A stretch of 64,000 nt of DNA from Patescibacteria group bacterium (GTDB lineage Bacteria > Patescibacteriota > Microgenomatia > 0-14-0-10-38-17): contig JBMNNJ010000001.1 in NCBI GenBank assembly GCA_050953885.1, positions 527,437 through 591,436 on the forward strand. Reading direction: 5' to 3'. How positions within the stretch are numbered: the first letter of the stretch is position 1; every line of letters begins with the position of its first letter. Positions 5,901 to 50,320 of the stretch are shown here, in pieces. Both the position numbers and the translations under genes were made by a program. Under the pieces are notes generated by a model that worked only from the letters and a program-made list of their open reading frames with translations, searched no databases and had not been told where the DNA came from.

Positions 5901-5919
5901 TTGCATTTTAAAAATTTTT

Positions 5920-7482
5920 GTGGTACTTTTAAACTATAAAAAGATGACCTTTTCTTTTTCTTGCAAACTTTCTTGCAAAAAACTATTTTTAGCTTTCTTT
6001 ATTTTTGGGACTGCTTTTCTTTTATTGGTCCCAAAAATAAAAGCGGTAAACGCTTATTACGAGCCGGGGACAGGCGGCGGGGTCGGCGGGAAAGTCGCTT
6101 CCTTTGAAGAAGCAGTTTACGAAACCAATGAATTTAACAACGAAAGCCATTCTTATGCCACCACCGAAAATATTATCCAAAGCCTCAACAATATGATTTT
6201 GGGTTGCGCCACTGAAACATGCGCAAATGCTTTAGCCTCAAAAGGTTTGCCTACCAACGGCGCCGTTGGCGCCGCCAGCGGCTTGATCGCCTCTCTTTAC
6301 GCCACCCCACCCGCCTCTTCTGCTTATTACTTGGCTGACTTGGGCCAGCGGCTTAATCTAACTCAATCGGTCTACGCCCAAGGAATCGGTTTTTCCGGCC
6401 TCAACCCTCTCTTGGATCTTTGGAAAGCGGCTCGCAACGTAGCCTACACTTTCTTTATTTTTGTCTTCCTAATTATTGGTTTTGCCATTATGTTTCGGGC
6501 CAAAATTAACCCCCAAACGGTGGTCACCATTCAAAGCGCCATCCCCAAGGCGGTGGTGGCCCTGATTTTGGTTACCTTTTCCTACGCCATCGCCGGGTTA
6601 ATGATTGATTTGATGTACCTCTCAATCGGTTTACTTTTTGGTCTTATCCCCGCTAATTTTAAAGCTTTTCTTCCTCATGGCAGCGATGTTACTCCTTATT
6701 ACACCGGCGGCTTTGGTGAGCTTATTCATAATGTTTGGGATGCCGGCTGGGGATCCTTCTGGAGAGTTCTTACCGAAGGTGTTGGTTGGACAGGACTAGG
6801 AGTTGATGCTGGCATAACAGGAATCGCTGCCGGTATCGCCGCACTGCTTTCCGGACCTACAGGCTGGGTTGCCCTAGCCACTGCCGTAGCTACCCCTATA
6901 CTATTAATATTCCTCGTCGCTATAATCGTTCTTTTCGCCACCGTCAAAATTTTTTGGGTGCTTTTGGTTTCTTATATCAACATCATCATTAGTATTTTGA
7001 TTGCCCCTATTCAGTTAATGCTTTCCGCCATCCCCGGCCAAAATACTTTTGGCCCCTGGATAAGCAATCTCTTAAAAAATATTCTTGTTTTTCCTGCCAC
7101 CGTCGGTATGTTTATTTTAGCCTTTATCCTCTCCGATCTTTCTAAAATAAGCGGTGATCAAAATCTTTGGGTGCCACCTCTTTTAGGTTTTTGGGGCGAA
7201 AAAACCAGTCAAGCAATCGGGGGGTTGTTAGGTTTTGGTATCATCTTGATGACCCCTAAAGTAGCTGATATAATCAAGAGTATGTTTGAGAAAAAGCCCT
7301 TCGCCGCCGGGACGGCGATAGGGGAAGCATTGGGACCGGCTAAGGGAATAGGAAAAGCCGCAGGATGGGTAGGGGTTAGTAGTGGCGCTGAAGCAATCAC
7401 GGCGGGCTGGAGTGGAGCAACGCAACCCCCAATAAAGAAGGGAGTCAGAACAATTCTCCAACGTACAAAAATAGTCCAATAA
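5920..7482 (+). CDS. polytopic membrane protein, VirB6/TrbL-like (contextual assignment)
   Basis: At least five long hydrophobic helices, Gly-rich loops, placed after the pilin genes in a T4SS-like locus. Confidence 0.4.
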   Translation: MVLLNYKKMTFSFSCKLSCKKLFLAFFIFGTAFLLLVPKIKAVNAYYEPGTGGGVGGKVASFEEAVYETNEFNNESHSYATTENIIQSLNNMILGCATETCANALASKGLPTNGAVGAASGLIASLYATPPASSAYYLADLGQRLNLTQSVYAQGIGFSGLNPLLDLWKAARNVAYTFFIFVFLIIGFAIMFRAKINPQTVVTIQSAIPKAVVALILVTFSYAIAGLMIDLMYLSIGLLFGLIPANFKAFLPHGSDVTPYYTGGFGELIHNVWDAGWGSFWRVLTEGVGWTGLGVDAGITGIAAGIAALLSGPTGWVALATAVATPILLIFLVAIIVLFATVKIFWVLLVSYINIIISILIAPIQLMLSAIPGQNTFGPWISNLLKNILVFPATVGMFILAFILSDLSKISGDQNLWVPPLLGFWGEKTSQAIGGLLGFGIILMTPKVADIIKSMFEKKPFAAGTAIGEALGPAKGIGKAAGWVGVSSGAEAITAGWSGATQPPIKKGVRTILQRTKIVQ

Positions 7483-7692
7483 TAGCATGCTCCAAAGAAC
7501 TAAAAAAGTCGCTGGAAAACTCCTTCTTTCTGCCATTTACAAAGAGGCGGCAAACCATTCAGCTAAAGGAAAAGAGCCGTGGAATACTGTAAGAAGACTG
7601 ACTAAAAAGAAAGCAGAACAAAAATAAGCCTACATTCATTAACGTAAATAAGCTTATTTTAACATCTCTTTCCCTCAAGACAAAACAATAAC

Positions 7693-9309
7693 TTATTTGT
7701 TCTTTCTCCCCTCATGTAGAGGAAGACATTCTTGTTTAGATAAGACATTTTGTATTGACTCCCATGCTTCACGAGAGTCAGAAAAAAATCCTGCCGTTTC
7801 ACAGGCCGCCTTCACATATTCAATAAGACCCTTAGAACTTCCTGCCCCCAAACTTTTAAGTAATCCATCTAAAATACCAGGAGCAACTACATCCGCTCTT
7901 CTATTTTTGCTTATTGTAGATGTTCCTAACGTTAACAATCTCCCTCCAATCAAATTTATTTTCAGTAATTTCTTTTCTTCATCATCCAAATCCCCCGTGC
8001 CTAATTGAATATCCTTATTAATCACCCTTAAGGCTTCAGGCGTTACTAATTCAGCCACCATATCTGGCAATTTATTTTCCCAAAAAATCTTTCTCACTCG
8101 ATTCTGCCTAAACATACAATAAAGCCAAGAGCTAAAGGCTGTTTCCGGAGTTTCTTTAAGTACATCCTTTAGGTTCTCCCCACCCATCCAGCGGTCAAAA
8201 ATAGATTTTTTTCCCCCTTTAGGCCCAACTTTGGTAGCATGCCAAAAATCAGTTGTTAAGCTGTCCGGAGCTGTCTGGGCCAAGACCGGTGGCCCTGCCG
8301 GTCTGCCCAGCCTTAAATCAGCTAAGGTCTTACCTCTAAAAAAGAAAAGTTTTATCAAATCAGATTGCTGCTCATTATAAAAAGTGCAATCTCCCTCTGG
8401 CTTTTCCCCTCTTTTATCCTTCTCGCCTCCCAACCAAACAGACAAGAGTGTTACTGTTGCCAAATGTTTGGCTAAAATAACCGCTCTCTTAGCTACAAAA
8501 GAATTCACACCTTCCTCGACTAATTGTTTCTCCAACATTTCCGCAAATTTCCTTCTCTCTTCTTCAGTGGAATCTTTTTCTTGTAGAATCTTAGTAAAAG
8601 TCGTTTCTATTTTTCTCCCCGCCGGTGTTTTTAATTCAACCCCAAGGTGTATATCTATTATAAGTCTCAATGCCCTCTCTGTCGCTGGACCATAATCGGG
8701 AGTTTCCAACAAATCTTTCATCATTGAAGGAGGCAAAGTCTCCAAATACGATGCACTTAAAAAAAGTCTTTCTGCATAAGTATCAACATCGCTTTCCAGG
8801 GGAGACCGTTGGGCAAAAACATTTTGAAGTCTAATCGCCGCTTCTACTTGATGAAGCACTTTCCCCCATTCTTCAGCTTCTTCTTCATTTTTTCTTTTCC
8901 TTTCTCCCTCACTCCCCATGCCTTCTCCTTTACTTTCTTCCCCAAAGGGTTGGCGTTGATATTTTCTAAGATAAGACTCTGGCAAACCGCCTATTCCCTG
9001 AAGGTGAATAGAAAATTTATCAGAATAAGCTCTCCTATTTAAAGCGTCAATAACCGGACGCACCGACCATGGCTCTATCGCCTCTGGTTTTTTCTCGTTG
9101 CTTTCTCTTGGAAATAACAGCTCAAAAATAATCACTTCTCTCCCGCCTTGTGGCGCAACTTCGGGATTACTAAGCATCTCCGCTATCCCCACCGATAACT
9201 CTCGCAACTTCATTTGCTCCTGCGTTAGCGCCTCTGGCCAACCAAGTTCCCCCTGGTTTACCTCTTCCGACGGTCTTCCTCCTGGTCTTTCTCCTTCAAC
9301 TCCTAGCAT
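7693..9309 (-). CDS. hypothetical cytoplasmic protein (acidic, no TM)
   Basis: Long ORF antisense to the T4SS-like genes; no recognisable motif. Confidence 0.5.
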   Translation of the reverse strand: MLGVEGERPGGRPSEEVNQGELGWPEALTQEQMKLRELSVGIAEMLSNPEVAPQGGREVIIFELLFPRESNEKKPEAIEPWSVRPVIDALNRRAYSDKFSIHLQGIGGLPESYLRKYQRQPFGEESKGEGMGSEGERKRKNEEEAEEWGKVLHQVEAAIRLQNVFAQRSPLESDVDTYAERLFLSASYLETLPPSMMKDLLETPDYGPATERALRLIIDIHLGVELKTPAGRKIETTFTKILQEKDSTEEERRKFAEMLEKQLVEEGVNSFVAKRAVILAKHLATVTLLSVWLGGEKDKRGEKPEGDCTFYNEQQSDLIKLFFFRGKTLADLRLGRPAGPPVLAQTAPDSLTTDFWHATKVGPKGGKKSIFDRWMGGENLKDVLKETPETAFSSWLYCMFRQNRVRKIFWENKLPDMVAELVTPEALRVINKDIQLGTGDLDDEEKKLLKINLIGGRLLTLGTSTISKNRRADVVAPGILDGLLKSLGAGSSKGLIEYVKAACETAGFFSDSREAWESIQNVLSKQECLPLHEGRKNK

Positions 9310-9416
9310 ATTTAACCTAGCAATAATTACTTATTTAAATAAATTCTACCATATTAAATATTTTCTCTCTAAAACCATTATATCACATTAAATTAATCAA
9401 TTTTTCCTATCACAGA

Positions 9417-11348
9417 CTACTGAATATCTAATCTTTCTCTTGCAAAAGCACCTCTTTTTTCAAGATAACCTAACGGGTGCTCTTTTAGTAAACTCTCAAA
9501 TACTAATCTATCCGTCACCCCAAATGGAGACGTTATTCCCCTCTTTTCCGGATTTCTCACCCCACCATAACCAGCATAAACTGCCCACACTTTCAAATTA
9601 TGAAAATGTCTTATTGCCGTCTCCTTCGAACTACCCCTCTCTTCGTAATATTCCTCAAGATTCCTTTCTAGTCTCAAAGTCCTGAAAATATCAAGAAGGG
9701 GTACAACCCACTCTCCTATTTTTTCTTCTCTCAAGGGCCTACCAGGGCTAAAGTATTCCAACAGTTCCACTGCTTCCTTCGAGATAAGAAAAAAATGATC
9801 TTCACTTGTAAGATTGCTCTGTGTTCTACTCCAGTCGATTTTTTCTTTTCTAAGCAATCTTTCCAATAAGCTTACTTTTCCTTGACTATCATCACTGTAA
9901 GTTTCCCAAAAACTTTTCATTGTGGTAACAGGATAACATTCTGGCACATAAATTAAAATTTTCCCTTTTTTTCCCTCAACCTCATAACGCCAAAACTGAG
10001 AAGGAGAGTTCGCCCCCTTAAATATAAAATCTTCTGCTTCCTTTCCCGTTTCCTTTTTTATTCTCTCAATCTGCAATACTCCCCACTTACCAAAAGCTCC
10101 CCACTCAAAACCATTTGCGCACTCATCTTCAAATCTTTCTTGAGGATGATAAACAGTCCGCAGGGCTTCGGAACACAACGCCGGAACCCAAGCATGCCGT
10201 TCTCTCAAATCCCTAGGGCCTTGCAAAGAGTATCGGCTATCAACTGACTCTATCAAGTTACTACACCATATCCAATTCCAGGCAATAGCATCAGCACTCT
10301 TAACCTTAATTCTAAGTTTTTGCCTTTCTTCCTCGCTCATTTGGCTTTCCATTTCCCGAGAAACACCAAAAACACTTCTTGCCAAATAATCCTGCAGTTT
10401 TTTCCTAAACTCATTAAGCTCCGCTCCTGATTCGCATTCTACTAAACAAAACTCTTCTTCCTCGCCACTCCCTTTATCTACAATCTTAGTCGTGCCATTT
10501 ATAATTTCATCAGCGTACCATTCCAAAGACTGCTTTACTCCCTCAATATTGTAAAGCCTTTCTGCCTGTTCAACCGTGTTTGTCAATTGTATCCAATCTA
10601 AATCTTCCGTCAACTCCTTTGGAGATGCATAATGTACTTTCTTCCAATAAGCCGCTCTGGCTAATTGCCAACGGGCATCCCAATCCCTACGCTCCTCAGA
10701 AGAAGCCTCTATATAAAACCGTGGCTCCATATTAGGAGTAAAACGCGTGTAAAAATCTTGTTGAAGCTCCACATCAACCCAACGCTCTTTCTCTTCTTCA
10801 GGAGGCAATTGAGAGTAGGCTTCTCTTGTTCTTTCATTATAACCAATAGCCATTTTTATTAAGTTTTCGGTGCTTTCTTGATTTTTTTGGGTTGACTTAA
10901 TTGTTTCTTCTTGTAAATCTTTCATTCTTCCCATAAATTTATCTAAACCGCTTAACTTTATCTCCGTGGGCATAGCCTTTTGGTTTACTTCTCCCCCCTC
11001 TTCTGACAATTCCTGCTCCCTTAATAATCTTTCCCTTTCCTCACCAAGCTCTCCGGCTAAAACCGACCATTCATCTTCAGGCACTTGCTCGTCAAGGCAC
11101 CAATCATCGCCTTTCCCTAAAAGTTTCCCCAAACCTTCCGGGGTTTGGTTGCGAGATTCCAACGCCAGCCGGCCTAAGCGTTGGAGCTTCTCGTTTCTGA
11201 TTGCCGCCTCTTGCAAAACTTTTTCTTCCTCGTCTTTTTTTGGCTCTATTAAACCCCGTAACCTTTCTTCAAAAGAAGGTTGCCTTGCCTGCTCTGCCGA
11301 TAATGGTCTTTCCTGTTCTGGTGTGGGCATAATTTCTCTTTCAACCAT
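9417..11348 (-). CDS. hypothetical cytoplasmic protein (Glu/Arg/Trp-rich)
   Basis: Long ORF; no recognisable motif. Confidence 0.5.
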   Translation of the reverse strand: MVEREIMPTPEQERPLSAEQARQPSFEERLRGLIEPKKDEEEKVLQEAAIRNEKLQRLGRLALESRNQTPEGLGKLLGKGDDWCLDEQVPEDEWSVLAGELGEERERLLREQELSEEGGEVNQKAMPTEIKLSGLDKFMGRMKDLQEETIKSTQKNQESTENLIKMAIGYNERTREAYSQLPPEEEKERWVDVELQQDFYTRFTPNMEPRFYIEASSEERRDWDARWQLARAAYWKKVHYASPKELTEDLDWIQLTNTVEQAERLYNIEGVKQSLEWYADEIINGTTKIVDKGSGEEEEFCLVECESGAELNEFRKKLQDYLARSVFGVSREMESQMSEEERQKLRIKVKSADAIAWNWIWCSNLIESVDSRYSLQGPRDLRERHAWVPALCSEALRTVYHPQERFEDECANGFEWGAFGKWGVLQIERIKKETGKEAEDFIFKGANSPSQFWRYEVEGKKGKILIYVPECYPVTTMKSFWETYSDDSQGKVSLLERLLRKEKIDWSRTQSNLTSEDHFFLISKEAVELLEYFSPGRPLREEKIGEWVVPLLDIFRTLRLERNLEEYYEERGSSKETAIRHFHNLKVWAVYAGYGGVRNPEKRGITSPFGVTDRLVFESLLKEHPLGYLEKRGAFARERLDIQ

Positions 11349-11687
11349 ATTGGTTTAGCTATAACAAACTTGGCCCGATTTTAGCAAAAAATATAGGAAA
11401 AAACAAGCTCGGCCCTTGCGCAGTTTCTTAGTTTGTTGTAAGCTAGAATTGTTTAAAGTTAAAAGTCAAAATTCAAAATGCAAAAAGTTAGCAACTCGCA
11501 ACTGGTAACCAGTAACTCGTAATAAGAAGCCAAGATTAAATAACAAAGAGTAAAATGCAAAACCAAGCCAAGAATTAAAAATGTCTTTGAATTTTGATTT
11601 AGGTTTTAATCTTTGCGCTTTGCTCTTTGCGCTTTTTTTATTACCTATTACGGACTACTGATTTTGACTTTTGAATTTTGAATTTTT
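11349..11687. repeat. mosaic hairpin-forming intergenic repeat
   Basis: Arms 'aaagtcaaaattcaaaatgcaaaa ... ttttgacttttgaattttgaattttt', with modules 'gttagcaactcgcaactggtaaccagtaactcgtaataagaa' and 'tttgatttaggttttaatctttgcgctttg'. Confidence 0.8.
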
Positions 11688-12533
11688 ATGGAACAGCATC
11701 CTATTCCTCAACACATTTCCTCCTATGAGTTTCGCCTTATCGGCGAGATGACGCTAGGACAGTTTGCCCGTGTGGCCGGCGGGGTTATCGTTGGTTTGCT
11801 TTTCTACGCTCTTCCTTTACCCGGTTTTATCAAGTGGTTCCTTGTTTTTCTTGCGGTGGGAGGAGGAGCAGCTTTTGCTTTTTTTCCCATTGAGGGCCGC
11901 CCCTTGGAAACCTGGATTTTGGCCTTCTTAAAATCAATTTATTCTCCCACCCAGTATGTCTGGCGAAAAAGCGTCGCCTCTTTTGACTTTCAAACCCGAA
12001 CGCCCTCTGCCGAAGAAGCCCTTCCTCCTTCCCCAGCCACAAAAACCCTTACCCCTCAAGAGTTGGCTCTTTTGCGCACTTTTGGACAGAAAGATACCGA
12101 TTTTTATAGTGAAGAGGAAATTAAAAAAGCCCAGGCGCTTCTTGCTCTTTATCAGCAACCCACCAAAGTAACCCCTCCTCCCCCCCCGGCGGGGGTTAAA
12201 AAAGAAGAAAAGGCCAAAGAGACTCGCTTTGAGGAAAACCTGCCTTTTCCCGCCCCGCCGGAAGAGCCGAATATTATCGTCGGTATGGTGATTGACAAAA
12301 ACGGCAAGATTGTGGAAGGAGCAATTATTGAGATCAAAAACCAAGAAGGGGAAACGATGCGGGCAATGAGAAGCAACAAGTTGGGTCAGTTTCGCACTGT
12401 TTCTCCTTTAGGTGATGGCGAATACCAAATTTCCTGCGAAAAAGAAGGACTTAATTTTGATATAATGAAAATTAAACTTGAAGGGAAAATCCTTCCACCT
12501 ATTGAAATAAGAGAAAAGCCATCGGCTCTATAG
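11688..12533 (+). CDS. PrgI/VirB3-like membrane protein with C-terminal carboxypeptidase-regulatory-like beta domain
   Basis: N-terminus 'IPQHISSYEFRLIGEMTLGQF' plus two TM helices resembles the PrgI family. C-terminus 'IIVGMVIDKNGKIVEGAIIEIKN...GQFRT' resembles the CarbopepD_reg fold. Sits directly upstream of VirB4. Confidence 0.4.
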   Translation: MEQHPIPQHISSYEFRLIGEMTLGQFARVAGGVIVGLLFYALPLPGFIKWFLVFLAVGGGAAFAFFPIEGRPLETWILAFLKSIYSPTQYVWRKSVASFDFQTRTPSAEEALPPSPATKTLTPQELALLRTFGQKDTDFYSEEEIKKAQALLALYQQPTKVTPPPPPAGVKKEEKAKETRFEENLPFPAPPEEPNIIVGMVIDKNGKIVEGAIIEIKNQEGETMRAMRSNKLGQFRTVSPLGDGEYQISCEKEGLNFDIMKIKLEGKILPPIEIREKPSAL

Positions 12534-36424: not shown

Positions 36425-36593
36425 AAACTGCCTTACCAAAAGACGCGAATTAACGAGTAATGGGCGCGCCCTGAAGCGCGCTAATCCATTCTATTCTGAC
36501 CGCATTATTTAACTTGTACAGAGAAAAAATTTAGGCTGGATGAAGTGGTATTTTAAACGAGAAGTTGTTATAATGCGAGTTAATAATTTGATA

Positions 36594-36646
36594 TTCCTCG
36601 GTAGCTTGGTTGGTAGACCTGCCTGCCGGCAGGCAGGGCGTCCGCC
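36594..36646 (+). pseudogene. partial duplicate of tRNA-Asn 5' half (positions ~1-31) carrying a 20-nt perfect palindrome insertion (36618-36637, 'cctgcctgccggcaggcagg')
   Basis: 'ttcctcggtagcttggttggtagac[cctgcctgccggcaggcagg]gcgtccgcc' versus genuine tRNA 'tcctcggtagctcagttggtagagcgtccgcc' at 36918. Confidence 0.6.
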
Positions 36647-36668
36647 GTTGTTTTTGTATGATTTAAGT

Positions 36669-36914
36669 ATGTATTATGTTTATGTGATAAAAAGTGAAAA
36701 AGACAATAGTCTTTATAAGGGGATTACTAACTGCCTATCAAGGAGGTTGAAAGAACATAATTTGGGGAAAAATCAATCAACAAAAAGTAAAATTCCTTAT
36801 GTTTTGGTTTATCATGAGACGGTTGATAACAGGATGAAAGCGAGAGAAAGAGAAAAGTGGTTTAAAAGTGGTGAGGGCAGAGAGTTTTTGAGAAAAATTA
36901 TTTTAGAAAAGTGA
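36669..36914 (+). CDS. small GIY-YIG nuclease (COG2827/UPF0213-like, tRNA-adjacent type)
   Basis: 'YYVYVIKSEKDNSLYKGITNCLSRRLKEHNLGK...IPYVLVYHETVDNRMKAREREKWFK'. Start at internal ATG 36669; the ORF-track N-terminus would read through the tRNA fragment. Confidence 0.7.
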   Translation: MYYVYVIKSEKDNSLYKGITNCLSRRLKEHNLGKNQSTKSKIPYVLVYHETVDNRMKAREREKWFKSGEGREFLRKIILEK

Positions 36915-36917
36915 TAT

Positions 36918-36990
36918 TCCTCGGTAGCTCAGTTGGTAGAGCGTCCGCCTGTTAAGCGGCTGGTCGGAGGTTCGAGTCCTCCCCGAGGAG
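36918..36990 (+). tRNA. tRNA-Asn (anticodon GTT)
   Basis: Acceptor UCCUCGG/CCGAGGA, D-arm GCUC-AGUUGGUA-GAGC, loop CUGUUAA, T-arm GGAGG-UUCGAGU-CCUCC. Confidence 0.8.
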
Positions 36991-37176
36991 CACGGTCTTT
37001 CTTACTCAAAACAGAAAAGCAAGTTTAGTTTATCCTTAAAATACTTCAAAAACCTATTGAAGAGTGTGAGCTTTTATTTTCTCTGGAAAATAGCTCCTAA
37101 AAGTTGTTTTAGGAGAGACGGTAAATACGTTTTTTGTCAAAGCTTCAAAAAAGCAATAGAAAAATAATAGCTTTGT

Positions 37177-39980: not shown

Positions 39981-40074
39981 TTTATGAACTAAACAATGAA
40001 TAGTGGGGTGGACTAAAAAGCTAGATATAGTTCTTTTTGTCTAAAAAGGTACTCTTTTAACCACTGTCTCATTC

Positions 40075-40290
40075 GAGTATCATCCAAGCGCGGGAGCCAA
40101 GCTTGACGAGAGGCCGAATCGGCTATCTTGTCAAAAGGATTTACCTAGTCAAATCGGACTTTTTGCTCTTTAACTCTAAGCCCTGAAGCACCATCTTCAA
40201 AAGCAGCCGTTTTTCGTGGGCTTCAGAACTTTCAAACACTTTCCCAGCGTTTTCAGCCAGTTTTAGCAGGTAAGATGAGGTTACATAGTA
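40075..40290. repeat. island repeat family R, copy 1
   Basis: 'gacgagaggccgaatcggctatcttgtcaaaaggatttacctagtcaaatcggacttttt...ctctaagccctgaagcaccatcttcaaaagcagccgtttttcgtgggcttcag'. Confidence 0.7.
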
Positions 40291-40500
40291 TTCCTCGTCG
40301 GCAAATTGTAGCTTCTCAATTTTCTTATTGATTGCCTTCTGTTTTGCCCGATACCCTTTTCGTTTTTTCTCTATAGTAGCTCTCAGTAATTTTCCGCTGC
40401 CTGGCGAATTGTTAAAAATTTTGGTAACCCTTTCTTAGCCCTCTGTAGATCTCAATAAAATTATACAAAAAACCAGGGTAAAATGGTATTATCAAAGTGA

Positions 40501-41541: not shown

Positions 41542-41924
41542 AAATAAATCTTAGTTTCCTAAGCCCCGACCTTTGAACACATTGCTGTCGCTTGTTATAT
41601 TCTCATTGCCCCTTCTTCGAGAAAGAGCCAGGCTGCCAGATGGCGCGATTATTGAGGTTATTTATTACCGCCCAATCTTTCTTTTACCTCTTATTTTTAA
41701 ATGCAGGATTGGTATCCCTTCTTTTTGATGATTGGTTTCTTCCTGGTTATTTACTTTTCCGCCTTCCTGGTTGTGGCTATTCTTCACACACAATTACACA
41801 CCCGATGTGCAACAGATTACTCCTGTTTGGAAGAGAGCAAACAAGTCAAAAGGCTAAAAACCTATTAACTTCCTTGTTTTTAAACTCAGGATATTCGAGG
41901 TAGTTTACTCAGTCTGTTCTTCGA

Positions 41925-42130
41925 AAAACATACCATCGCTAGAGCCAACTTTGACGAGAGGCCGAATCGGCTATCTTGTCAAAGGGGTTTATCCAGTTAT
42001 ATCGGACTTTTTTACCCTTTATCTCTAAGTTCTGAAGTGCCATCTTCAAAAGCAGGCGTTTTCCGCGAACTTCATTCGGCAGGTGTTAAGCTATTCCACC
42101 TGGAAGGTGGAAATCACTTTAGAAAACGGC
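41925..42130. repeat. island repeat family R, copy 2
   Basis: 'gacgagaggccgaatcggctatcttgtcaaaggggtttatccagttatatcggactttttt...ctctaagttctgaagtgccatcttcaaaagcaggcgttttccgcg'. Confidence 0.7.
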
Positions 42131-42230
42131 GGCATGAATTTGGGAGATGAAAACTGGCCAATAAGGTACTATAAAGAAGTGCTGAGTGCCAGTTGAGCAA
42201 AAATTAAAACTCTGTTAACATACAACCAGA

Positions 42231-42809
42231 ATGAAATATATAGAGAAGGAAATAAAGTTTGAGATAAAGGATTTGCCGAAGCTTATTGATTGCTTAAAAA
42301 AGAACGGTGCGAAATTCCTAAATGAATCTAAAGAAAGAACGATCAGGCTAGATACTTCAGACGGCGCTTTGGAAAAAAAGGGCGTATTCCTTCGAGTAAG
42401 AGCGGGAAACAAGAACACAATCACGCTTAAAGAGAAGGTTGGTGATGACAGAGATGTTAGGGCAAGAAAGGAAACGGAATTTGAGATTAAGGATGTGGAT
42501 GCAATGGCATATATCTTAGAAAGATTAGGCTTTGACTATCTTCGGATTATGGAAAAATACAGAATTAATTTGGAATATAAGGGAACAAAGCTATCCATAG
42601 ATGAATTATCTATCGGATTTTACCTCGAAATTGAAGGGCCCGAAAGAAAGATTGAAGCGGTTGCCGAGGAATTGGGCTTTGATCTAAAAGAGAAAATACT
42701 GGTGACGTATTGGGATATTCTTGAAGAGTTTAACAAAAGGGATAAAACAAAAAGGAAAGATATCGTTTTCCCCAAAGAGTACCAGCCCAAACTTTTGGGG
42801 GCATACTGA
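42231..42809 (+). CDS. CYTH-domain protein (CyaB-like class IV adenylyl cyclase / triphosphatase fold)
   Basis: 'EKEIKFEIKD...GVFLRVR...ITLKEKVGDD...EFEIKDVD...LSIDELSIGFYLEIEGPE' alternating acidic beta-strands. Confidence 0.55.
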   Translation: MKYIEKEIKFEIKDLPKLIDCLKKNGAKFLNESKERTIRLDTSDGALEKKGVFLRVRAGNKNTITLKEKVGDDRDVRARKETEFEIKDVDAMAYILERLGFDYLRIMEKYRINLEYKGTKLSIDELSIGFYLEIEGPERKIEAVAEELGFDLKEKILVTYWDILEEFNKRDKTKRKDIVFPKEYQPKLLGAY

Positions 42810-42924
42810 AAGGCTTGTCCACCCGGAAAGTGTCTTAGCTTGACACCTGGAGTATATTTAGTTGTGTTTTATTACCAAGGAGTAAAAATATGCCAAGTGT
42901 GAACCTGGGACACCTGGAAGGTGT

Positions 42925-43060
42925 ATTTACCAACTTTTTGCCATCAAGCCTTAAGCCCTGAAGGAAGTGTCACCTTCAAAAGTAGCCGTTTTTCGTGGAC
43001 TTCAGAACTTTCAAACAACTTACCTGTGTTTTGGGCAAGCTTCAGAAAGTTGGCTTATTC
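42925..43060. repeat. island repeat family R, copy 3 (partial)
   Basis: 'ttaagccctgaaggaagtgtcaccttcaaaagtagccgtttttcgtggacttcagaactttcaaaca'. Confidence 0.65.
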
Positions 43061-43119
43061 ATTTTCTGATTGGTATAATGTCTTCATATAGTTAAACAAA
43101 TTTTGTTTACCGAAAGAAG

Positions 43120-43308
43120 GTGAATAAAATAATGAGTATTCGAAAGGAAGTATTGTCAATGATTCCTAGTGAGGTTATAGGGCCTTCTGGGCAAGAAAGA
43201 TTGGGTCTCGAGCAAATAGGGTTGAAAGAATTATGTTCAAAGACTGACTTTATGAGTACCAAGAGAGGAGGTAGGGAGCCAGGGGTTAGGAAATGGGGAA
43301 GAGGATAA
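43120..43308 (+). CDS. small ORF (62 aa), speculative precursor peptide
   Basis: Preceded by 'gaaggtg' SD-like sequence; directly upstream of the PqqD-like gene; otherwise unsupported. Confidence 0.15.
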   Translation: MNKIMSIRKEVLSMIPSEVIGPSGQERLGLEQIGLKELCSKTDFMSTKRGGREPGVRKWGRG

Positions 43309-43404
43309 GAGAAATTAAAAGAAGATTAAATTAGTGAGTGTGCCATGGTTAACACTTAAGGCGTAAGCTGTTTTAAAGGCAAGTCTTTTAAATTCTTAGT
43401 TAAT

Positions 43405-43677
43405 ATGTATTTTAAATTAAACAAGGACTCAATAATTTTCCTGGATTCTGATGCGCAAGAAGGTTACAAAACAATAGCCTATGACTGGAAGAATGATAAA
43501 ATTTTAGAAATCTCCCCTCCTCTTTATCATATTTTAAAAGCTTTAGATTCTTCAGGATCAGCGACCGAAGAAGATTTAGAAAAATGGATTAACACTTTTT
43601 CCGCTAACGATAATTCTGTAAAAAAAGCGATAGCTGATTTAATTGAGAGAGAGATAATTAACAAGTATGAATACTAA
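43405..43677 (+). CDS. PqqD-like small protein (putative RiPP recognition element)
   Basis: 90 aa; 'IIFLDSDAQEGYKTIAYDWKN...LYHILKAL' resembles the PqqD family; overlaps the next gene by 11 nt. Confidence 0.3.
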   Translation: MYFKLNKDSIIFLDSDAQEGYKTIAYDWKNDKILEISPPLYHILKALDSSGSATEEDLEKWINTFSANDNSVKKAIADLIEREIINKYEY

Positions 43678-45289
43678 TTTTACTTTTACTTTTTCGCCAA
43701 GTACATCCTCGCTTGAACAATTAAGCAAACAGCTTAAAGATGTTATTTTGCCGGCAAAGGTATTTATTGAGAACAAAGAGATGGCTGTCTGGGGCTATTT
43801 TTCAAGCTACAGGCCTGAAATATCTGAAAACAGTTTGGCTGACGAGTTAAAAAAATACGGCTTTGGGCGAATTGCAAACAGCGATTGTGATTATCTTTTG
43901 TTTGTCTGGGACAAACAAACCAAAAAACTAATGGTGGGGCTTGATAATATAATGAGCATTTCATGTTACTTCACTATCTTAGACAACCAAATTGTCTTTT
44001 CTTCAAGTTTTTCGGAAATTAAAAACACCGTCTCTTACCATCAACCATTAATAGCTGACTTGGACGGCTTATTAACATATGTAACAAACGGAATGCATTC
44101 AACGGAACGGACCATCCTTGATTCAGTAAAATCAATTCCTCCTGGAAGCGTGGTTGATTTTGTTTTTGAACCTGGTATCTCGTATCAAATAAGCTCTTGT
44201 GTTGATATTGACGGTTTTCTTAATTCTTTGCCTAAAGACGAATTTAAAGATGAAAAAGAGTTTGCAAAGGCGCTGGAGTTAGTCTTAACGGATGCGGTGG
44301 CGCGCCGTTTGGAAAAAATTCCGCAAGGGACCCATATTGGCTGTGAAATCTCAAGTGGTTTTGACTGCACTTTGGTTGCTTATATCATGGCCAAGCTTAT
44401 TGGTCCGGAGAATTTTTATTGTTATTCGTTTTATTTTCCAGAAGGTTATGGTACAGAAAGTTTGGCAGTTATTCGCAAATTTGCAGATAAACATTCTCTG
44501 CAGTTAAGAGCGGTAGAGCTTAATCCCAAAGAGGGCTATGCACGGGATTATTTCAAACTTTGGGAAAATGATGATCTTTTGCAACTGCGCGCTGATTACT
44601 TCGGCGATTATATAAAATTATTAGAGAAATATACCCCTCGTTTACTTTTTACTGGCCAACACGGGGATGAGACTTATTCTCTTAAGGAATTGCTGTTGAC
44701 CGCAAAATATAATCGCCAGATGAGTTATTTTGATAATGTCTGGTGGTTGAAAAAGGATAACCAGGCTGTGCTTTATACACAAAAGGGCTTGGATTTGCTA
44801 CTTGATAGGGAGAGATTTAATAGCCGAGGAAGGTATCCTGTGTTTTATTCAGACATTAATTTAGCAGAGACAGCCTTGATAGATCAAGTCTATAGGAATT
44901 TTGGAACTCGCGAGGTGTCCCCTTATTTGGATTTGCAGGTGCTGTCGGTGGGAATAAGGCGAGGTTCGAAAAAGAAAGAAATAAAGGATGAGAAACAGCT
45001 CTATTTTCGATATCTTGATCATATATTTATTCCCGAGATGTTTATTCCCAAAAGGGGAGGAACAGAATTCGCTTTGGATTTTCCGAGAAATCAAAAAACT
45101 TTAATATCTTGGGTAATGGAGAATTCTGTTTTAGCCCAATCTGGGTTGATAGATCCTAAAAAGATTATGCAGATGATGGCCAATAAAAATAGCCCCCTTT
45201 ACAAAGACGCGTTTGTGGCTTTAGCTTTCGAATATTTGGTGAGGGCAGATTGGTATTTAATCAAGAACAAAATAAGTCTGCCGATATGA
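43667..45289 (+). CDS. asparagine-synthetase-like (AsnB family) ATP-dependent amidotransferase/cyclase-like protein
   Basis: Degenerate PP-loop 'EISSGFDCTLVAYIM'; N-terminal domain without Cys1 resembles lasso-cyclase-type AsnB homologs; size 540 aa. Confidence 0.4.
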   Translation: MNTNFTFTFSPSTSSLEQLSKQLKDVILPAKVFIENKEMAVWGYFSSYRPEISENSLADELKKYGFGRIANSDCDYLLFVWDKQTKKLMVGLDNIMSISCYFTILDNQIVFSSSFSEIKNTVSYHQPLIADLDGLLTYVTNGMHSTERTILDSVKSIPPGSVVDFVFEPGISYQISSCVDIDGFLNSLPKDEFKDEKEFAKALELVLTDAVARRLEKIPQGTHIGCEISSGFDCTLVAYIMAKLIGPENFYCYSFYFPEGYGTESLAVIRKFADKHSLQLRAVELNPKEGYARDYFKLWENDDLLQLRADYFGDYIKLLEKYTPRLLFTGQHGDETYSLKELLLTAKYNRQMSYFDNVWWLKKDNQAVLYTQKGLDLLLDRERFNSRGRYPVFYSDINLAETALIDQVYRNFGTREVSPYLDLQVLSVGIRRGSKKKEIKDEKQLYFRYLDHIFIPEMFIPKRGGTEFALDFPRNQKTLISWVMENSVLAQSGLIDPKKIMQMMANKNSPLYKDAFVALAFEYLVRADWYLIKNKISLPI

Positions 45290-45895
45290 GGTGTAGACGG
45301 GATTGAAAAGGAGGTTTTTTATCGGGAATACCGAAAATACTCGGCTTTAGAAAGAAAATTAAGAGGAAATAACATTTGTATTAGAGGTTTAAAAATCTAT
45401 CTACCTCTTTGCTTACAAATTCAGGATATTCCAGCTCTTTAGTCTAGTCTGTCCTTCGGAAAACATATTTAGTCCGCCGTAGATTTTAGCTTTAGCGAAG
45501 GAGACCCATTATTCGAGCCTATTGCACACCCCTATCCCACACCTATTGCCCGATGTGCAACAGATACGGCACATCGGCAAGATCAGTTTTCCCAGGTTAA
45601 ATGTTTAATCTTCTCCAACTCTTTCTGATAATTGACTTGATTAAAAATAAATCTCTGGTTAAATTAAAAAACGATTTTCCTATTTATCCCGATGTGCAAG
45701 GGGTAAATCACATCGGGTGCGAAGCAGTGGCGTGAACTTGTAGGGTAGATTTTACCCCCGCTTCGTACTTATTTGGTCAACAGGGGCAAGTTAAATTCTC
45801 CCTAGTAAAATTGTTTAAATTTATGCTAAAATTTAGTTGTTGTTATCAAGAGGCTTTTTAAGAAAGCCGCAAGAATAATTTTTTAAAATAAATAT

Positions 45896-46330
45896 ATGTG
45901 TCCTGTTTGTACCGTGGGCGTGGCGGCGGGGTTGGGTTTATCTCGCTGGCTTAAAGTTGACGATGCCATTTCCGGTCTTTGGATTGGGGCTTTAATTTTG
46001 GCCTTGGCTATTTGGTTTTGGCGATGGCTTTACCAAAAGAAGGCCCAGAAACCGTTTAGCGCCCTCTTGCTTTTGGTGGTGGCTTTTTGGCTTTTAACTT
46101 TTCTTCCCCTTAATTATGCCGGCATTCTTGAGGACTGCCGCCCTCTTTGGGGGATGAATCGCTTAATTTTAAGTTCAATTATTGGCGTGTTGGTGGCGCT
46201 CTTGGGCATTTTGCTTGATAAAGATATTAGAGCCGGCAAAAAAGGCAAGGCGGCCTTCCCTTACCAAAAAGTGGTTTTGCCCCTTACCCTTCTTCTTTTG
46301 GCCAGCTTGATGATGGCCTTAGTTTCTTAA
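45896..46330 (+). CDS. membrane protein, hypothetical (four TM helices)
   Basis: Hydrophobicity pattern; N-terminal CPVC. Confidence 0.35.
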   Translation: MCPVCTVGVAAGLGLSRWLKVDDAISGLWIGALILALAIWFWRWLYQKKAQKPFSALLLLVVAFWLLTFLPLNYAGILEDCRPLWGMNRLILSSIIGVLVALLGILLDKDIRAGKKGKAAFPYQKVVLPLTLLLLASLMMALVS

Positions 46331-46338
46331 TTAAAACG

Positions 46339-46860
46339 ATGAATAAAGAGGAACTTTTAAAAAAAGTTAAAAATTTTAAAGAGAGCGACAAGGTTGATCT
46401 TTCTTCGAAAGAGGATTTAGCGGTGGCGGTGATGAATCTTATTAGCATCGAGGAGCATCTTTTCTTTACCTACAATAAAACCGGCGATAAGAAATATTTA
46501 GGTTTATTAAAAGAAGTCAGAGAAGGGCGCAAAAAGTATCTGGCCCAGATTGTTAAAAATCCCAAGGGAGAGCTTTGGTGCATTTCCAAGCATTTGTTGA
46601 GCGCTTCGATGAGGTTGATGGAGGTGGGCACCAAGAAATTAAATGAAGGAGAGGAAAAAGAGGCGAAGGAACTTTTTGAAAAAAGTTATGATCTTTGGAA
46701 TATTTTTTGGGGGCTTAACTTAGGCTTAATTGAGGCAAAAGATGTGCTGGCCGAAGAGGATGAGAAAGAAGAGATTAAGCTTGGGGAAGGGAAAAAGGTT
46801 TCCGTTTTTGCCAAATTGGGAGATGTTATCCAAAAAGTTTTGGATTGCTGTCGGGAGTAA
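46339..46860 (+). CDS. hypothetical protein
   Basis: ORF only. Confidence 0.35.
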   Translation: MNKEELLKKVKNFKESDKVDLSSKEDLAVAVMNLISIEEHLFFTYNKTGDKKYLGLLKEVREGRKKYLAQIVKNPKGELWCISKHLLSASMRLMEVGTKKLNEGEEKEAKELFEKSYDLWNIFWGLNLGLIEAKDVLAEEDEKEEIKLGEGKKVSVFAKLGDVIQKVLDCCRE

Positions 46861-47336
46861 AACAAAGTTTAGGTTATCCCCTTTTCCCCTCAATTTTAGT
46901 TTTAAGAATGAAAAGCCCGGTTTGTCAAAGAGATGGTTTCGGTTGCGGCATTGCCTGCCTTGCTTTTATAACCGGCAGGTCCTACGAGAAGATCGCGGAA
47001 GGATTAGATAAAGAAAAAGCCAAAACAGAAGGTTTTTCTTGTCGGGAATTAATTGCTTATTTGAAAAGTTTAGGATACCGGGCGGAGTACCATTATCTTA
47101 ACCAAAAGTGGCGAAAAAAGATTTATCGGGAGAAAGCGATTGTTTTTCTAAAACGAAGCAAAAAATTTCCTTCCGGTCATTATCTTGCTCGCTATCATAC
47201 TTTTTGGATGGATCCTTGGCTTAATTTCTCAAAAGAAAAAAGCTTGGTATTGGCCAAAGCAGGTTTTAGAAAAAGACTGCCGGGAAAGCCAATTTACGGC
47301 ATTTTTGTGACCGGACCGCAGAAAGTGAAAACATAA
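46845..47336 (+). CDS. peptidase C39-like (papain-fold) cysteine protease domain protein
   Basis: 'CQRDGFGCGIACLAFITGRSYEKI...GFSCRELIAYLKSLGY' carries the Gln/Cys catalytic-site pattern of the C39-like family. Confidence 0.45.
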   Translation: MLSGVKQSLGYPLFPSILVLRMKSPVCQRDGFGCGIACLAFITGRSYEKIAEGLDKEKAKTEGFSCRELIAYLKSLGYRAEYHYLNQKWRKKIYREKAIVFLKRSKKFPSGHYLARYHTFWMDPWLNFSKEKSLVLAKAGFRKRLPGKPIYGIFVTGPQKVKT

Positions 47337-47997: not shown

Positions 47998-49365
47998 TTA
48001 GGGTTGATAGAGATCTAAAATCTTCTTGCCGATTTCGGCGTTGAAGCCGGAGAAAGCTTTTTGACCAACAAAAATAATCGGGTAATAACCAAAAGAAGAA
48101 GAAACGCCTTCGCTTTTATTACCAACGGCCTGTTTTTTCTCCTCCAGTTTTTGGGTAAAATCGGCTTCTTCTATAAGATACTCCTCAAAGGGAATATTTT
48201 GGTCCTTGAAAAATTCTTTGGCCTCAAGACACATCGGGCCGCTATTGTTGTGAAACATTAAAACTTCTGCCGCCCCTTCAGCCTCTTCTTTTTCTGGCGC
48301 GGGCGTTTCTTTTGATTCCTCGTTCGTTTTTGGCCAATATTTTCCTACCTCATCGACGGCGCAAGGATTAGCGATATTTTCCTCCTCGTCATAAGAAACA
48401 AGCGGCCTGATTTTTTCCGGTGTATAAGGGGCGGTGCGGTTTTGGGGGATTTGCCAGCCGGGTAAAACTACCACCTCATTCTGGGCCAGCTCATCAATGG
48501 TTACCCACTCCACTTCTTCATTGTCAAAAAAATTCAGCCACATTTGATACCACGGCTTTTTAAGGCCGCCAATATAGGTATGGGAAACCGGAGTAATCTG
48601 GCTCTGCCGAAGGGCCGCCTTAAGCTCCGCCAGCATATCATCCGGCGTTCCTCCCCGCTCGTAGTAACTATAATCGCAAAGACTGCCGTATTTAAATTTA
48701 ATGGAAGGAATGTTAGAGACAGAAACCACTTTGACATCAGGATACTCCTCGGCCTGATAAACCGTGGCTTTGGTGTCGGTGGTGCCCCGGGCAAAAAGAT
48801 AAGGGATACCCAACTCTTGCGCCACTTCGATTGTGGTTAAATCAGTGCCCATATAACGAGCCGAGATAATCCTTAGAGGCTGGCCGGTGCAGGCCTCAAT
48901 GCGTTCTTTCAAGTTAACAATCGCTTTTTTTTGCTCTTCATAGGGTTTATCCCAAAAAGGGGCTTCCAAGCTTGAACCGGCAATTTCTAAATTATAGGGG
49001 AGTAACTTTTTAACATCTTCGCAATTTTTTTCAATAAAATCCGCCCCCACCATTAGATAACCATGAATCCCCCGCCGGTAAAGCTCGTTAACAAAATTAG
49101 CCAAACCAACCGTGTCTTTCATCTCAATTAAAATCATCAGCCCTTTCGGAGGAGGATAAAGCCGCGTCGATGGTGTTGCCTGATAAGTTTTTGCTTCATA
49201 AAGCTCATCTTGACAAAGCGCTAAATCTTTTTTTAAAGAAGCCAAGGCGGAGGAAGAAAAAAGACCGGTGATTAAAAAGATCAGCAAAAGGCAAAGAAGG
49301 ATAATTTCTTTTTGTTCTTTTTCCATTTCTGCTTTCAGTTTAACATTTATTTTTCCCTTTGCCAA
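47998..49365 (-). CDS. exported or membrane-anchored protein with C-terminal glutaredoxin-like domain; possible divergent polysaccharide deacetylase fold
   Basis: N-terminal TM; C-terminus 'VLMFHNNSGPMCLEAKEFFKDQNIPFEEYLIEE' is thioredoxin-fold-like with a single Cys. Confidence 0.35.
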   Translation of the reverse strand: MAKGKINVKLKAEMEKEQKEIILLCLLLIFLITGLFSSSALASLKKDLALCQDELYEAKTYQATPSTRLYPPPKGLMILIEMKDTVGLANFVNELYRRGIHGYLMVGADFIEKNCEDVKKLLPYNLEIAGSSLEAPFWDKPYEEQKKAIVNLKERIEACTGQPLRIISARYMGTDLTTIEVAQELGIPYLFARGTTDTKATVYQAEEYPDVKVVSVSNIPSIKFKYGSLCDYSYYERGGTPDDMLAELKAALRQSQITPVSHTYIGGLKKPWYQMWLNFFDNEEVEWVTIDELAQNEVVVLPGWQIPQNRTAPYTPEKIRPLVSYDEEENIANPCAVDEVGKYWPKTNEESKETPAPEKEEAEGAAEVLMFHNNSGPMCLEAKEFFKDQNIPFEEYLIEEADFTQKLEEKKQAVGNKSEGVSSSFGYYPIIFVGQKAFSGFNAEIGKKILDLYQP

Positions 49366-49458
49366 ATTACGCCGGCGCCGGCAATAGGGGGGCTCACCGT
49401 CCGTGGCAATTTAACAATTTATTCGTCATTTTCCATTCCAGTAAGCTATAATATAGAT

Positions 49459-49716
49459 ATGAAAAAATTAGCGCCTCTTTTTAAAGAAAAGCCCTATCTT
49501 GCCTGGGATGTAAAAGATAAGGGGGGTTTATCGGAAAAAAGTATTTTAGAACATATTTTAAATTACGGCAATTGGGACGACTATTTGGCGGCCGAAAAAA
49601 CTTTTGGTTTAAAAAAAACCAAAGCTTTCTATGAGGAGCTTAAAAACAAAAAAAGAGTTAACTTAAGGCCGCAGACCATCAATTATTTTGATTTATACTT
49701 TAAAAAATATGCATGA
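49459..49716 (+). CDS. small protein, putative partner (antitoxin-like) of the downstream nucleotidyltransferase
   Basis: Overlaps the downstream gene by 8 nt; start taken at internal ATG. Confidence 0.3.
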   Translation: MKKLAPLFKEKPYLAWDVKDKGGLSEKSILEHILNYGNWDDYLAAEKTFGLKKTKAFYEELKNKKRVNLRPQTINYFDLYFKKYA

Positions 49717-50320
49717 GGAAGTGCTTTCAGAAAAGCAAAAAAAACTTTTACCGCTTTTAAAAAGCTTCTCGGACAACTTTGGCTTGGTGGGCGGCACCGC
49801 CGTTGCCCTACAAATAGGCCACCGCCGCTCAATCGATTTTGACCTTTTTACTCTTAAAAAACTGGCGGGCGAAAATATTCGCGAGATTGTTAGGGAAAAA
49901 TACCCGATTCAGGAAATTATTACTGATGAGCCTAATGAACTTTCCCTGGCCGTTGAGGATGTAAAAATTACTTTTCTCAAGTATCCTTTTAAGATCAAAT
50001 TTTCCAAACCGTTTAAAGATATTATTAGCTGTCCTGACCTTCTCACTCTGGGGGCCATGAAAGCTTTTAGCTTAGGCCGGCGGGCGAAGTGGAAAGACTA
50101 TGTTGACCTTTATTTTATCTTTAAAAGCATCTCATTTGCCCAAATTGCCAAAAAAGCCCAAGTCCTGTTTGGAGGGGAATTTAACGAAAAGCTTTTTCGC
50201 GAGCAATTGGCTTATTTTGAAGACATTGATTATTCGGAAACAATTGACTATATGAGGGGGTTTGAAACAGAGGAGAAAGCCATAAAAGAAGAGTTAAAAA
50301 GGGTAAGTCTTCAGCGATAA
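49709..50320 (+). CDS. AbiEii/AbiGii-family nucleotidyltransferase (type IV toxin-like)
   Basis: 'FGLVGGTAVALQIGHRRSIDFDLFT' matches the DUF1814/AbiEii N-terminal motif. Confidence 0.55.
   Translation: MHEEVLSEKQKKLLPLLKSFSDNFGLVGGTAVALQIGHRRSIDFDLFTLKKLAGENIREIVREKYPIQEIITDEPNELSLAVEDVKITFLKYPFKIKFSKPFKDIISCPDLLTLGAMKAFSLGRRAKWKDYVDLYFIFKSISFAQIAKKAQVLFGGEFNEKLFREQLAYFEDIDYSETIDYMRGFETEEKAIKEELKRVSLQR

Follow-up and report, generated by a model that had tools for sequence, protein, structure and literature searches.

A conserved three-gene cassette of Patescibacteria encoding a predicted precursor peptide, a PqqD-like recognition element and an AsnB-like ligase

Does a short run of genes in a 64,000-nucleotide stretch from a Patescibacteria group bacterium (contig JBMNNJ010000001.1, positions 527,437 to 591,436 of the forward strand; hereafter the window, to which all positions refer) encode a system that modifies a ribosomally made peptide, and which of the genes belong to it? 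An earlier note, made from the letters of the window, had likened a small open reading frame (ORF), a 90-residue PqqD-like protein and a 540-residue AsnB-like protein to the loci of lasso peptides, which belong to the RiPPs (peptides that ribosomes synthesize and that are modified post-translationally), and had pointed to a CYTH gene upstream and a C39-like peptidase gene downstream as possible further components. We find that the functional unit is a cassette of three genes, for a precursor peptide, a RiPP recognition element (RRE) protein and an AsnB-like ligase, and not the whole stretch from the CYTH to the C39-like gene. The core of the earlier proposal, that a short precursor, a PqqD/RRE-like protein and an AsnB-like enzyme form a lasso-like RiPP locus, thus held, with the three genes co-conserved and the folds matching. 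Most likely the cassette makes a ring-containing modified peptide, lasso-like but without the usual leader peptidase. A description of this cassette family was not found in the published literature.

The three genes and their conservation

We inspected the genomic context of about 30 loci, taking in as much as 10 kb on each side. In Patescibacteria the trio turns up again and again, in about 30 loci whose enzyme identities range from 99% down to ~30%, and it is also found in still more distant members of the family (loci L158 and L162-L164). In every sufficiently flanked locus except those of one subclade that lacks the RRE, a gene of about 90 codons immediately precedes the enzyme gene and shares an overlap with it; RRE homologues were detected in this position in 21 of 25 non-redundant loci. 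With a hidden Markov model (HMM) of the peptide, a homologous ORF of 43-60 residues was found to adjoin the RRE/enzyme pair in every family locus with flanking sequence, which yielded 26 distinct peptides. Clustering of the neighbouring ORFs in the 25 non-redundant loci yielded no further protein family conserved beside the trio. In the Collierbacteria-type loci L001, L002 and L004 the entire trio is present as a tandem duplicate.

The 540-residue protein is AsnB-like, as had been proposed. It matches Pfam PF00733 (E=1e-6) and, over residues 73-337 only, TIGR01536 (E=4e-15; its 55.7 bits are far short of the 267.1 that the model requires); fold and alignment agree with these matches, and both the degenerate PP-loop (SSGFDCT) and the lack of an N-terminal cysteine described earlier are borne out. 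The protein starts with MNTNF, and Cys2 occurs in no family member. Having neither the MCG start nor a TIGR01536 score above the cutoff, it is not a bona fide, glutamine-hydrolysing AsnB with an intact glutaminase domain. An AsnB-like synthetase without the glutaminase cysteine is what defines the C protein of lasso clusters, but the curated lasso-cyclase HMMs do not recognize the enzyme: it reaches 23.8 bits with NF033535, whose cutoff is 525, NF033561 gives no match, and the distant family members likewise score far under the cutoff. By sequence, the enzyme is no nearer to the curated lasso-cyclase models than to AsnB.

Searches with the protein and with its family profile against PDB sequences returned nothing significant, the top match being TsnB9 (E=0.28). 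Structure comparison was more informative. The AlphaFold2 (AF2) model of the protein (predicted local distance difference test, pLDDT, 90.9) had full-length Foldseek matches to TsnB9 (E=2.6e-16), to β-lactam synthetase and carbapenam synthetase (E=1e-14 to 1e-12), and to human and E. coli AsnB. An hhalign comparison with canonical AsnB (probability 99%) shows a shortened N-terminal domain and pairs SSGFDCT with SGGIDSS, FTGQHGDE with LSGDGGDE and SPYLD with VPFLD. Since there is no Cys2, glutamine hydrolysis is impossible; the adenylating site looks intact. Lasso cyclases and β-lactam and carbapenam synthetases likewise have an adenylating site without glutamine hydrolysis. On the basis of the model and the aligned motifs, the protein is predicted to be an ATP-dependent synthetase that adenylates Asp or Glu and forms an amide (macrolactam).

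The word-index search with the 540-residue protein retrieved 35 relatives, all from Patescibacteria metagenome bins. An exhaustive profile search picked out a sharply bounded family of 64 clusters (at 50% identity) with E<1e-30, whose members are ~525-545 residues long, carry SSG[FL]D[SC] and lack the MCG start; not before about E=1e-19 do canonical AsnB proteins (600-660 residues, MCG start, SGGxDS) enter this search. All members belong to Patescibacteria (Microgenomates, Collierbacteria, Woesebacteria and Blackburnbacteria). Three cysteines around the PP-loop (C226, C234 and C252) are invariant in the 16-sequence alignment and had prompted us to consider Fe-S or sulfur chemistry. We dropped this idea on finding that most of the wider family has Ser in place of Cys234 (SSGFDSS); to judge from these sequences, a metal or sulfur role of the PP-loop cysteines is unlikely.

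For the 90-residue protein, the PqqD-like assignment of the earlier note finds no support in sequence but is supported by fold. Pfam and NCBIfam gave no significant match for it, the Pfam PqqD model matches one of 18 family members (E=0.12), and the family profile found only weak winged-helix matches among PDB sequences. The AF2 model (pLDDT 85), however, has the topology β1-β2-β3-β4-α1-α2-α3-β5, a three-strand sheet with a three-helix winged helix-turn-helix, which is the arrangement described for RREs (PMC13381572). Its best Foldseek matches in the PDB are to the RRE-containing proteins McbB, TbiB1, TbtB, MadB, CteB, TglI and NisB (probability 0.9-1.0, template modelling score 0.56-0.65); the second best, TbiB1, is a lasso RRE whose structure was solved with bound leader. 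The lasso B1/RRE component is thus recognized in the predicted fold, not by the Pfam PqqD HMM. As noted earlier, the ORF overlaps that of the enzyme by 11 nt.

The small ORF previously placed at 43120-43308, with 58-62 residues, is confirmed as well. Its true start is likely the ATG at 43132, which is preceded by a ribosome-binding site (AAGGTG) 9 nt upstream and which agrees with public gene calls in giving 58 residues. Over 32 codons compared between the window and locus L009, 7 are identical, 13 differ synonymously and 12 non-synonymously; the frequent synonymous substitutions indicate that the ORF is a real coding gene.

Alignment of the 33 distinct peptides reveals a common layout: a variable N-terminus, a leader motif, a core of the form x-K-x-G-G-x-[D/E], and about eight more residues. 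The leader motif, which reads E-P-x-V-E-V-L-G-K-M in a second clade (clade B), is likely the recognition sequence to which the RRE would bind. The core is C-terminal and reads T-K-R-G-G-R-E-PGVRKWGRG in the window; putative cores are ~15 residues long, and their net charge lies between +1 and +5. Within the last 22 residues, K-x4-[D/E] occurs in 28 of the 33 peptides (31 if x5 is allowed), compared to a mean of 5.2 (standard deviation 2.0, maximum 13) for shuffled tails. The Lys is invariant, whereas any of G, A, T, V, L, Q, I, K, R and E can stand in front of it. If the core is taken to start at the residue in front of the Lys, 28 of the 33 peptides have the acid at position 7 and most have G, A or T as residue 1; in some peptides, however, residue 1 is Q, L, V, I, K, R or E, none has Thr at position -2, and the residues at -1 and -2 are not conserved. 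The macrolactam ring suggested earlier, between Gly1 and Glu8 of 'GQERLGLE', falls into the unconserved N-terminal part of the leader in the peptide alignment, and we rejected it for this reason.

Beyond the window, the family shows some variation. The tandem duplicates lie at 7521-11783 (L001/L002/L013) and at 4860-9267 (L004-L006/L098); their copies carry separate peptide types (GKNGGGD... versus AKNGAGDKSGIYGH), and RRE and enzyme have diverged to ~30% identity between copies. The RRE-less enzyme subclade (L021, L022, L106-L108, L145, L159; 23-25% identical) has another small ORF directly upstream, which ends in ...[RK]K-S-S-R-Y-P-E-G-R-x-P-H-Y or ...KNSLYPENNIRFY and retains K-x5-E. In L160 (1244-13584), a distant enzyme member (E=2e-39) is located in a larger cluster that also encodes a radical SAM enzyme, a sulfotransferase, a PhyH dioxygenase and an S9 peptidase; this may be a RiPP pathway of greater complexity built on the same enzyme family. 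Genomes L009 and L012-L017, whose cassette proteins are 32-82% identical, bear the taxon labels 'uncultured Gammaproteobacteria/Pseudomonadales bacterium'; these labels are probably wrong, given the genome content and the similarity to Microgenomates records.

Table 1. Positions of the cassette genes, their motifs and the flanking features in the window.
Feature	Position	Strand	Basis and remarks
Precursor-peptide gene	43132..43308	+	58 aa from ATG; 62 aa from alternative GTG 43120; MSIRKEVLSMIPSEVIGPSGQERLGLEQIGLKELCSKTDFMSTKRGGREPGVRKWGRG
Leader motif E-Q-I-G-L-K-E-L-C-S	43210..43239	+	alignment of 26 distinct peptides
Predicted core peptide TKRGGREPGVRKWGRG	43258..43305	+	Lys 43261-43263; acidic residue Glu 43276-43278
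90-aa RRE (PqqD-like / lasso-B1-like fold)	43405..43677	+	AF2 and Foldseek; translationally coupled to next gene
540-aa AsnB-like enzyme without glutaminase nucleophile	43667..45289	+	AF2, Foldseek, hhalign
Variant PP-loop S-S-G-F-D-C-T (ATP pyrophosphatase motif)	44351..44371	+	invariant in 16-sequence alignment
3' part of ~270-nt intergenic repeat	42894..43110	+	repeat families D2/D5/D13; directly upstream of cassette
5' part of next repeat copy; downstream cassette boundary	45390..45467	+	family D3
CYTH gene, 192 aa	42231..42809		Pfam CYTH E=1e-14
C39-like ORF, 163 aa	46845..47336		Pfam C39 22.5 bits against cutoff 22, E=1e-4

The proposed reaction and its alternatives

Probably, the cassette is an RRE-guided, amide-forming RiPP system in which the AsnB-like enzyme acts on the conserved Asp or Glu. 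From the folds and motifs we infer that the RRE would bind the leader motif (…LEQIGLKELCS… in the window) and present the C-terminal core to the 540-residue enzyme, which would spend ATP on adenylating the conserved Glu/Asp at its side chain; an amine inside the peptide would then attack the acyl-adenylate and close a small macrolactam. The attacking amine may be the ε-amine of the invariant Lys five residues upstream, which would give a K-x-G-G-x-[D/E] isopeptide ring, and the product would be a small cationic ring with an 8-residue tail, possibly with an antimicrobial or signalling role. This amine is the most economical nucleophile because the three-gene cassette moves as a unit and a peptidase would not be needed. 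We slightly prefer it over the chemistry of a lasso peptide because there is no B2 peptidase and no Thr(-2), because positions -1 and -2 are not conserved, and because residue 1 varies next to an invariant Lys. Lysine as the nucleophile of a side-chain-to-side-chain macrolactam nevertheless stays a tentative assignment. As a whole, a lasso-derived RiPP cassette without B2 that forms a Lys-Asp/Glu macrolactam is the best explanation we can offer, one to which we give a little less than even weight.

Several observations weigh against it. We know of no AsnB-like enzyme that makes Lys-Asp/Glu cross-links in peptides. The scores far below the lasso-cyclase HMM cutoffs preclude a direct transfer of function from sequence, and the AF2 models of both proteins were computed from shallow alignments of 16-19 sequences. 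The peptide of L007/L011 (KKCGERKPGV) departs from the K-x4-E spacing, and that of L163 has no K-x4-[D/E] motif. Further, the core has lasso-like traits: G, A or T before the Lys in most peptides, an acid at position 7, a length of 15 residues and bulky residues at positions 11-13. Finally, the spacing of the clade-B leader, P-x-V-x3-G-x7 before the core, agrees with what we take to be the lasso leader pattern and fits a true lasso.

In a true lasso without a linked B2, an unlinked or housekeeping protease would cut off the ~42-residue leader in front of the residue that precedes the Lys, the newly freed α-amine of T/A/G1 would be joined to Glu/Asp7, and the resulting 7-membered ring would be threaded by the 8-residue tail. 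We consider this somewhat less likely than the Lys version. The traits just listed fit it, as do an acid at position 8 in some peptides and the constant length of the tail (~8 residues). An RRE and an AsnB-like cyclase are the lasso pair, with TbiB1 among the closest structural matches, and the clade-B motif E-P-x-V-E-V-L-G resembles the leader motif [Y/W]xxPx[L/V/I/F/A] bound by lasso RREs (PMC13381572). Lasso routes without B proteins exist, with triculamin and pseudomycoidin as precedents (bioRxiv 10.64898/2026.07.03.736388), which keeps this alternative in play. Against it, no gene for a transglutaminase-type B2 was found within 4-10 kb on either side in ~30 loci, nor was any other third gene conserved there, and Pfam searches found no match to this transglutaminase-like cysteine peptidase among the window neighbours or the fetched loci. 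A lasso would also leave the invariance of Lys2 unexplained; the expected Thr/Ile(-2) is missing, the cleavage-site residues are not conserved, some members would have Q, L, V, I, K, R or E at position 1, the tail of the L158 peptide would have only 5 residues, and the score of the enzyme on the lasso-cyclase model is a small fraction of the cutoff. A reaction without any cyclization, in which the enzyme would use ammonia or an outside amine to amidate or conjugate either the Asp/Glu or the carboxylate at the C-terminus and the RRE would only recruit the substrate, is improbable in our view. AsnB-type enzymes do also carry out intermolecular amidations, the best structural match, TsnB9, is a hydroxyamidotransferase, and the N-terminal domain has been kept, with invariant Asn71/Asp93-type residues where a small amine donor might bind. 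Without Cys2, however, there is no glutamine-derived ammonia, the conversion of an encoded Asp/Glu into Asn/Gln would be pointless, the residue type at the C-termini varies, and the strict spacing of K...[D/E] around a Gly-Gly turn is what would be expected of ring closure.

Two further alternatives were weighed. One is a wider system in which the CYTH enzyme and the C39-like protein, as leader peptidase, act together with the trio, or in which all of them form a nucleotide-signalling or defence module. The genes are physically adjacent in the window and in most same-species contigs (L165, L167-L169), and the peptides hold a Gly-Gly pair, after which C39 peptidases often cut. The CYTH protein is indeed the enzyme it was said to be, its nearest solved relative being the triphosphate tunnel enzyme Saci_0718 (E=3e-9), and the C39-like protein is a marginal Pfam C39 call (Table 1). 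Yet neither of them, nor the two genes in between, gave a tblastn match in 22 related genome loci, among them loci whose enzymes are 83%, 73% and 65% identical. The co-occurrence check that the earlier note had called for therefore holds for the PqqD-like/AsnB-like pair and fails for CYTH in the loci of other species. Even within the species the linkage breaks: in the comparison of flanks between contigs that encode an identical 90-residue protein (L165-L170), the CYTH gene is gone from strain L166, which has a NUDIX gene and others in its place, and the enzyme gene is separated from the downstream genes by an insertion sequence (IS) element in L165 and by an ABC-transporter block in L170. The cassette, moreover, has its own promoter-like site and repeat copies at its boundaries. 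We rejected double-glycine processing by the C39-like peptidase because the residue at -4 from the Gly-Gly is the invariant Lys, where double-glycine leaders require a hydrophobic residue, and because some peptides have no Gly-Gly at all (KRMNID, KWRGVE). We likewise rejected a defence module linked to CYTH, as CYTH is not conserved and PADLOC returned no match for any cassette gene, which leaves the nucleotide-signalling/defence alternative without support. The wider system is thus very improbable: the CYTH and C39-like genes are neighbours by an accident of strain history and lie outside the system, and with the C39-like gene absent from all loci of other species, its suggested role as leader peptidase falls away. 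The other alternative is that nothing special is encoded, merely a divergent housekeeping asparagine synthetase beside two chance small ORFs. Public annotation does name the enzyme 'asparagine synthetase B (glutamine-hydrolysing)', but the missing Cys2, the TIGR01536 score of 55.7 against 267.1 bits, the shortened N-terminal domain, the strict co-conservation of both small genes with coding-type substitutions, and the tandem duplication of the unit in some genomes make this hardly credible.

Repeats and mobility

That the cassette is bracketed by repeat copies, as had been observed earlier, is confirmed; the repeat is ~270 nt long. Copies in the window lie at 39990-40300, 41840-42150, 42894-43110 and 45390-45600. 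The third, directly upstream of the cassette, aligns with the first two and, in L012, with the sequence that lies upstream of the small ORF, and a promoter scan located within it a sigma-70-like site (43050-43079, TTGGCT-18-TATAAT preceded by TG, 10/12 matches). This upstream repeat is also present in L090, L012/L094, L088 and L166, and blastn found the downstream boundary copy in L090, L008, L088, L165-L167 and L170. The boundary repeats, the promoter-like site and the variable flanks mark the cassette as an independent mobile transcription unit; as it moves between contexts in this repeat-flanked form, it should be functionally self-sufficient.

Between 37 and 47 kb, a copy of this direct repeat stands before every one of the successive transcription units, and the repeat bounds the blocks that differ between same-species strains (the CYTH versus the NUDIX block, the IS insertion and the ABC-transporter insertion). 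Its RNA fold z-score is only -2.05, it contains a conserved hairpin, TTGACGAGAGGCCGAATCGGCTATCTTGTCAA, and no Rfam family matches the repeats. The region looks like a repeat-mediated gene-cassette array. As for an integron-like origin, there is no integrase nearby; the genes upstream are dnaG, rpoD, a GIY-YIG gene and tRNA-Asn.

Three further observations concern the surroundings. An AbiEii-type toxin-antitoxin system lies a few kb from the cassette in three unrelated loci (window 49312-50320; L001/L002 1-537; L162 2242-3436), which agrees with genomic surroundings that are mobile or variable. A 38-nt segment is duplicated with 84% identity (36580-36617 and 36903-36940) and covers the 5' end of tRNA-Asn (36918-36991); the duplicate lies inside the upstream GIY-YIG endonuclease ORF (36540-36914), the variable region begins straight after the tRNA, and the duplication is possibly an insertion scar at this tRNA. 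On the minus strand, 47998-49365 encode a 455-residue protein with weak matches to polysaccharide deacetylase (E=1e-3) and, C-terminally, to glutaredoxin-like proteins (E=3e-3).

Significance and comparison with known systems

The genomes of Patescibacteria are tiny, and the group is regarded as having next to no specialized metabolism; a conserved, mobile and sometimes duplicated RiPP cassette in them would be unexpected. Because rule-based lasso mining demands a B2 peptidase, the family would be missed by it. The cassette is a natural test case, either for lasso-type cyclases that work without leader removal or for AsnB-like enzymes that make Lys-Asp/Glu cross-links, and with only three small genes it is experimentally tractable. 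If the Lys version is true, lasso machinery has been re-purposed for peptidase-independent side-chain macrolactams, on repeat-flanked cassettes that are shuffled between strains. The cationic 15-residue products could act as effectors in the bacteria's episymbiotic lifestyle. That the cassette represents an undescribed RiPP class of Patescibacteria, in which a lasso-type RRE and a PP-loop enzyme cross-link an invariant Lys to Asp/Glu independently of a peptidase, is a possibility we put forward with considerable caution.

Canonical lasso clusters (precursor A, RRE B1, leader peptidase B2, AsnB-like cyclase C and exporter D) are among the known systems close to the cassette. Like it, they have a short precursor whose leader is N-terminal and whose core is C-terminal, and a discrete PqqD-like RRE whose translation is coupled to that of an AsnB-like enzyme without the glutaminase cysteine; further likenesses are the conserved Asp/Glu, which would lie seven residues into a putative core of ~15 residues, and, in one clade, a P-x-V leader motif. 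Unlike them, the cassette has no B2 peptidase, no exporter and no Thr(-2), it has an invariant Lys at core position 2, and its enzyme, with ~540 residues and a PP-loop of the form SSG[FL]D[SC], stays below the cutoffs of the curated lasso-cyclase HMMs. Triculamin-type clusters, whose chemistry is of the lasso type, resemble it in being compact, in having no dedicated leader peptidase and in escaping standard lasso-mining rules. They differ in that triculamin is made without a leader (the core forms the N-terminal part of the precursor, and a follower comes after it) and without RRE, B1 or B2, and in that the truncated cyclase TriC has no N-terminal domain, whereas in the cassette the leader is long, an RRE is encoded and the enzyme has two domains. 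The linear polyphosphorylated peptides (LPPs) of Bacillota show that a lasso-type RRE and leader motif can be recombined with other processing and another leader peptidase (PMC13381572); their chemistry is that of kinases and glycosyltransferases, with an SPase-I-like peptidase and no AsnB-like cyclase.

For the enzyme itself, β-lactam and carbapenam synthetases offer the parallel of a two-domain AsnB fold that has lost the N-terminal cysteine and carries out ATP-dependent intramolecular amide formation, but they act on small molecules and not on a peptide, have no RRE and retain the standard SGGxDS PP-loop. For the product, if the Lys model is right, a parallel would be the graspetides/microviridins, in which side-chain-to-side-chain macrolactams (Lys-Asp/Glu ω-amide rings) are formed on a leader-bearing precursor and cyclization needs no peptidase. 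Graspetides are closed by ATP-grasp ligases through an acyl-phosphate, whereas in the cassette a PP-loop AsnB-like enzyme, assisted by a separate RRE, would reach a similar ring through an acyl-adenylate.

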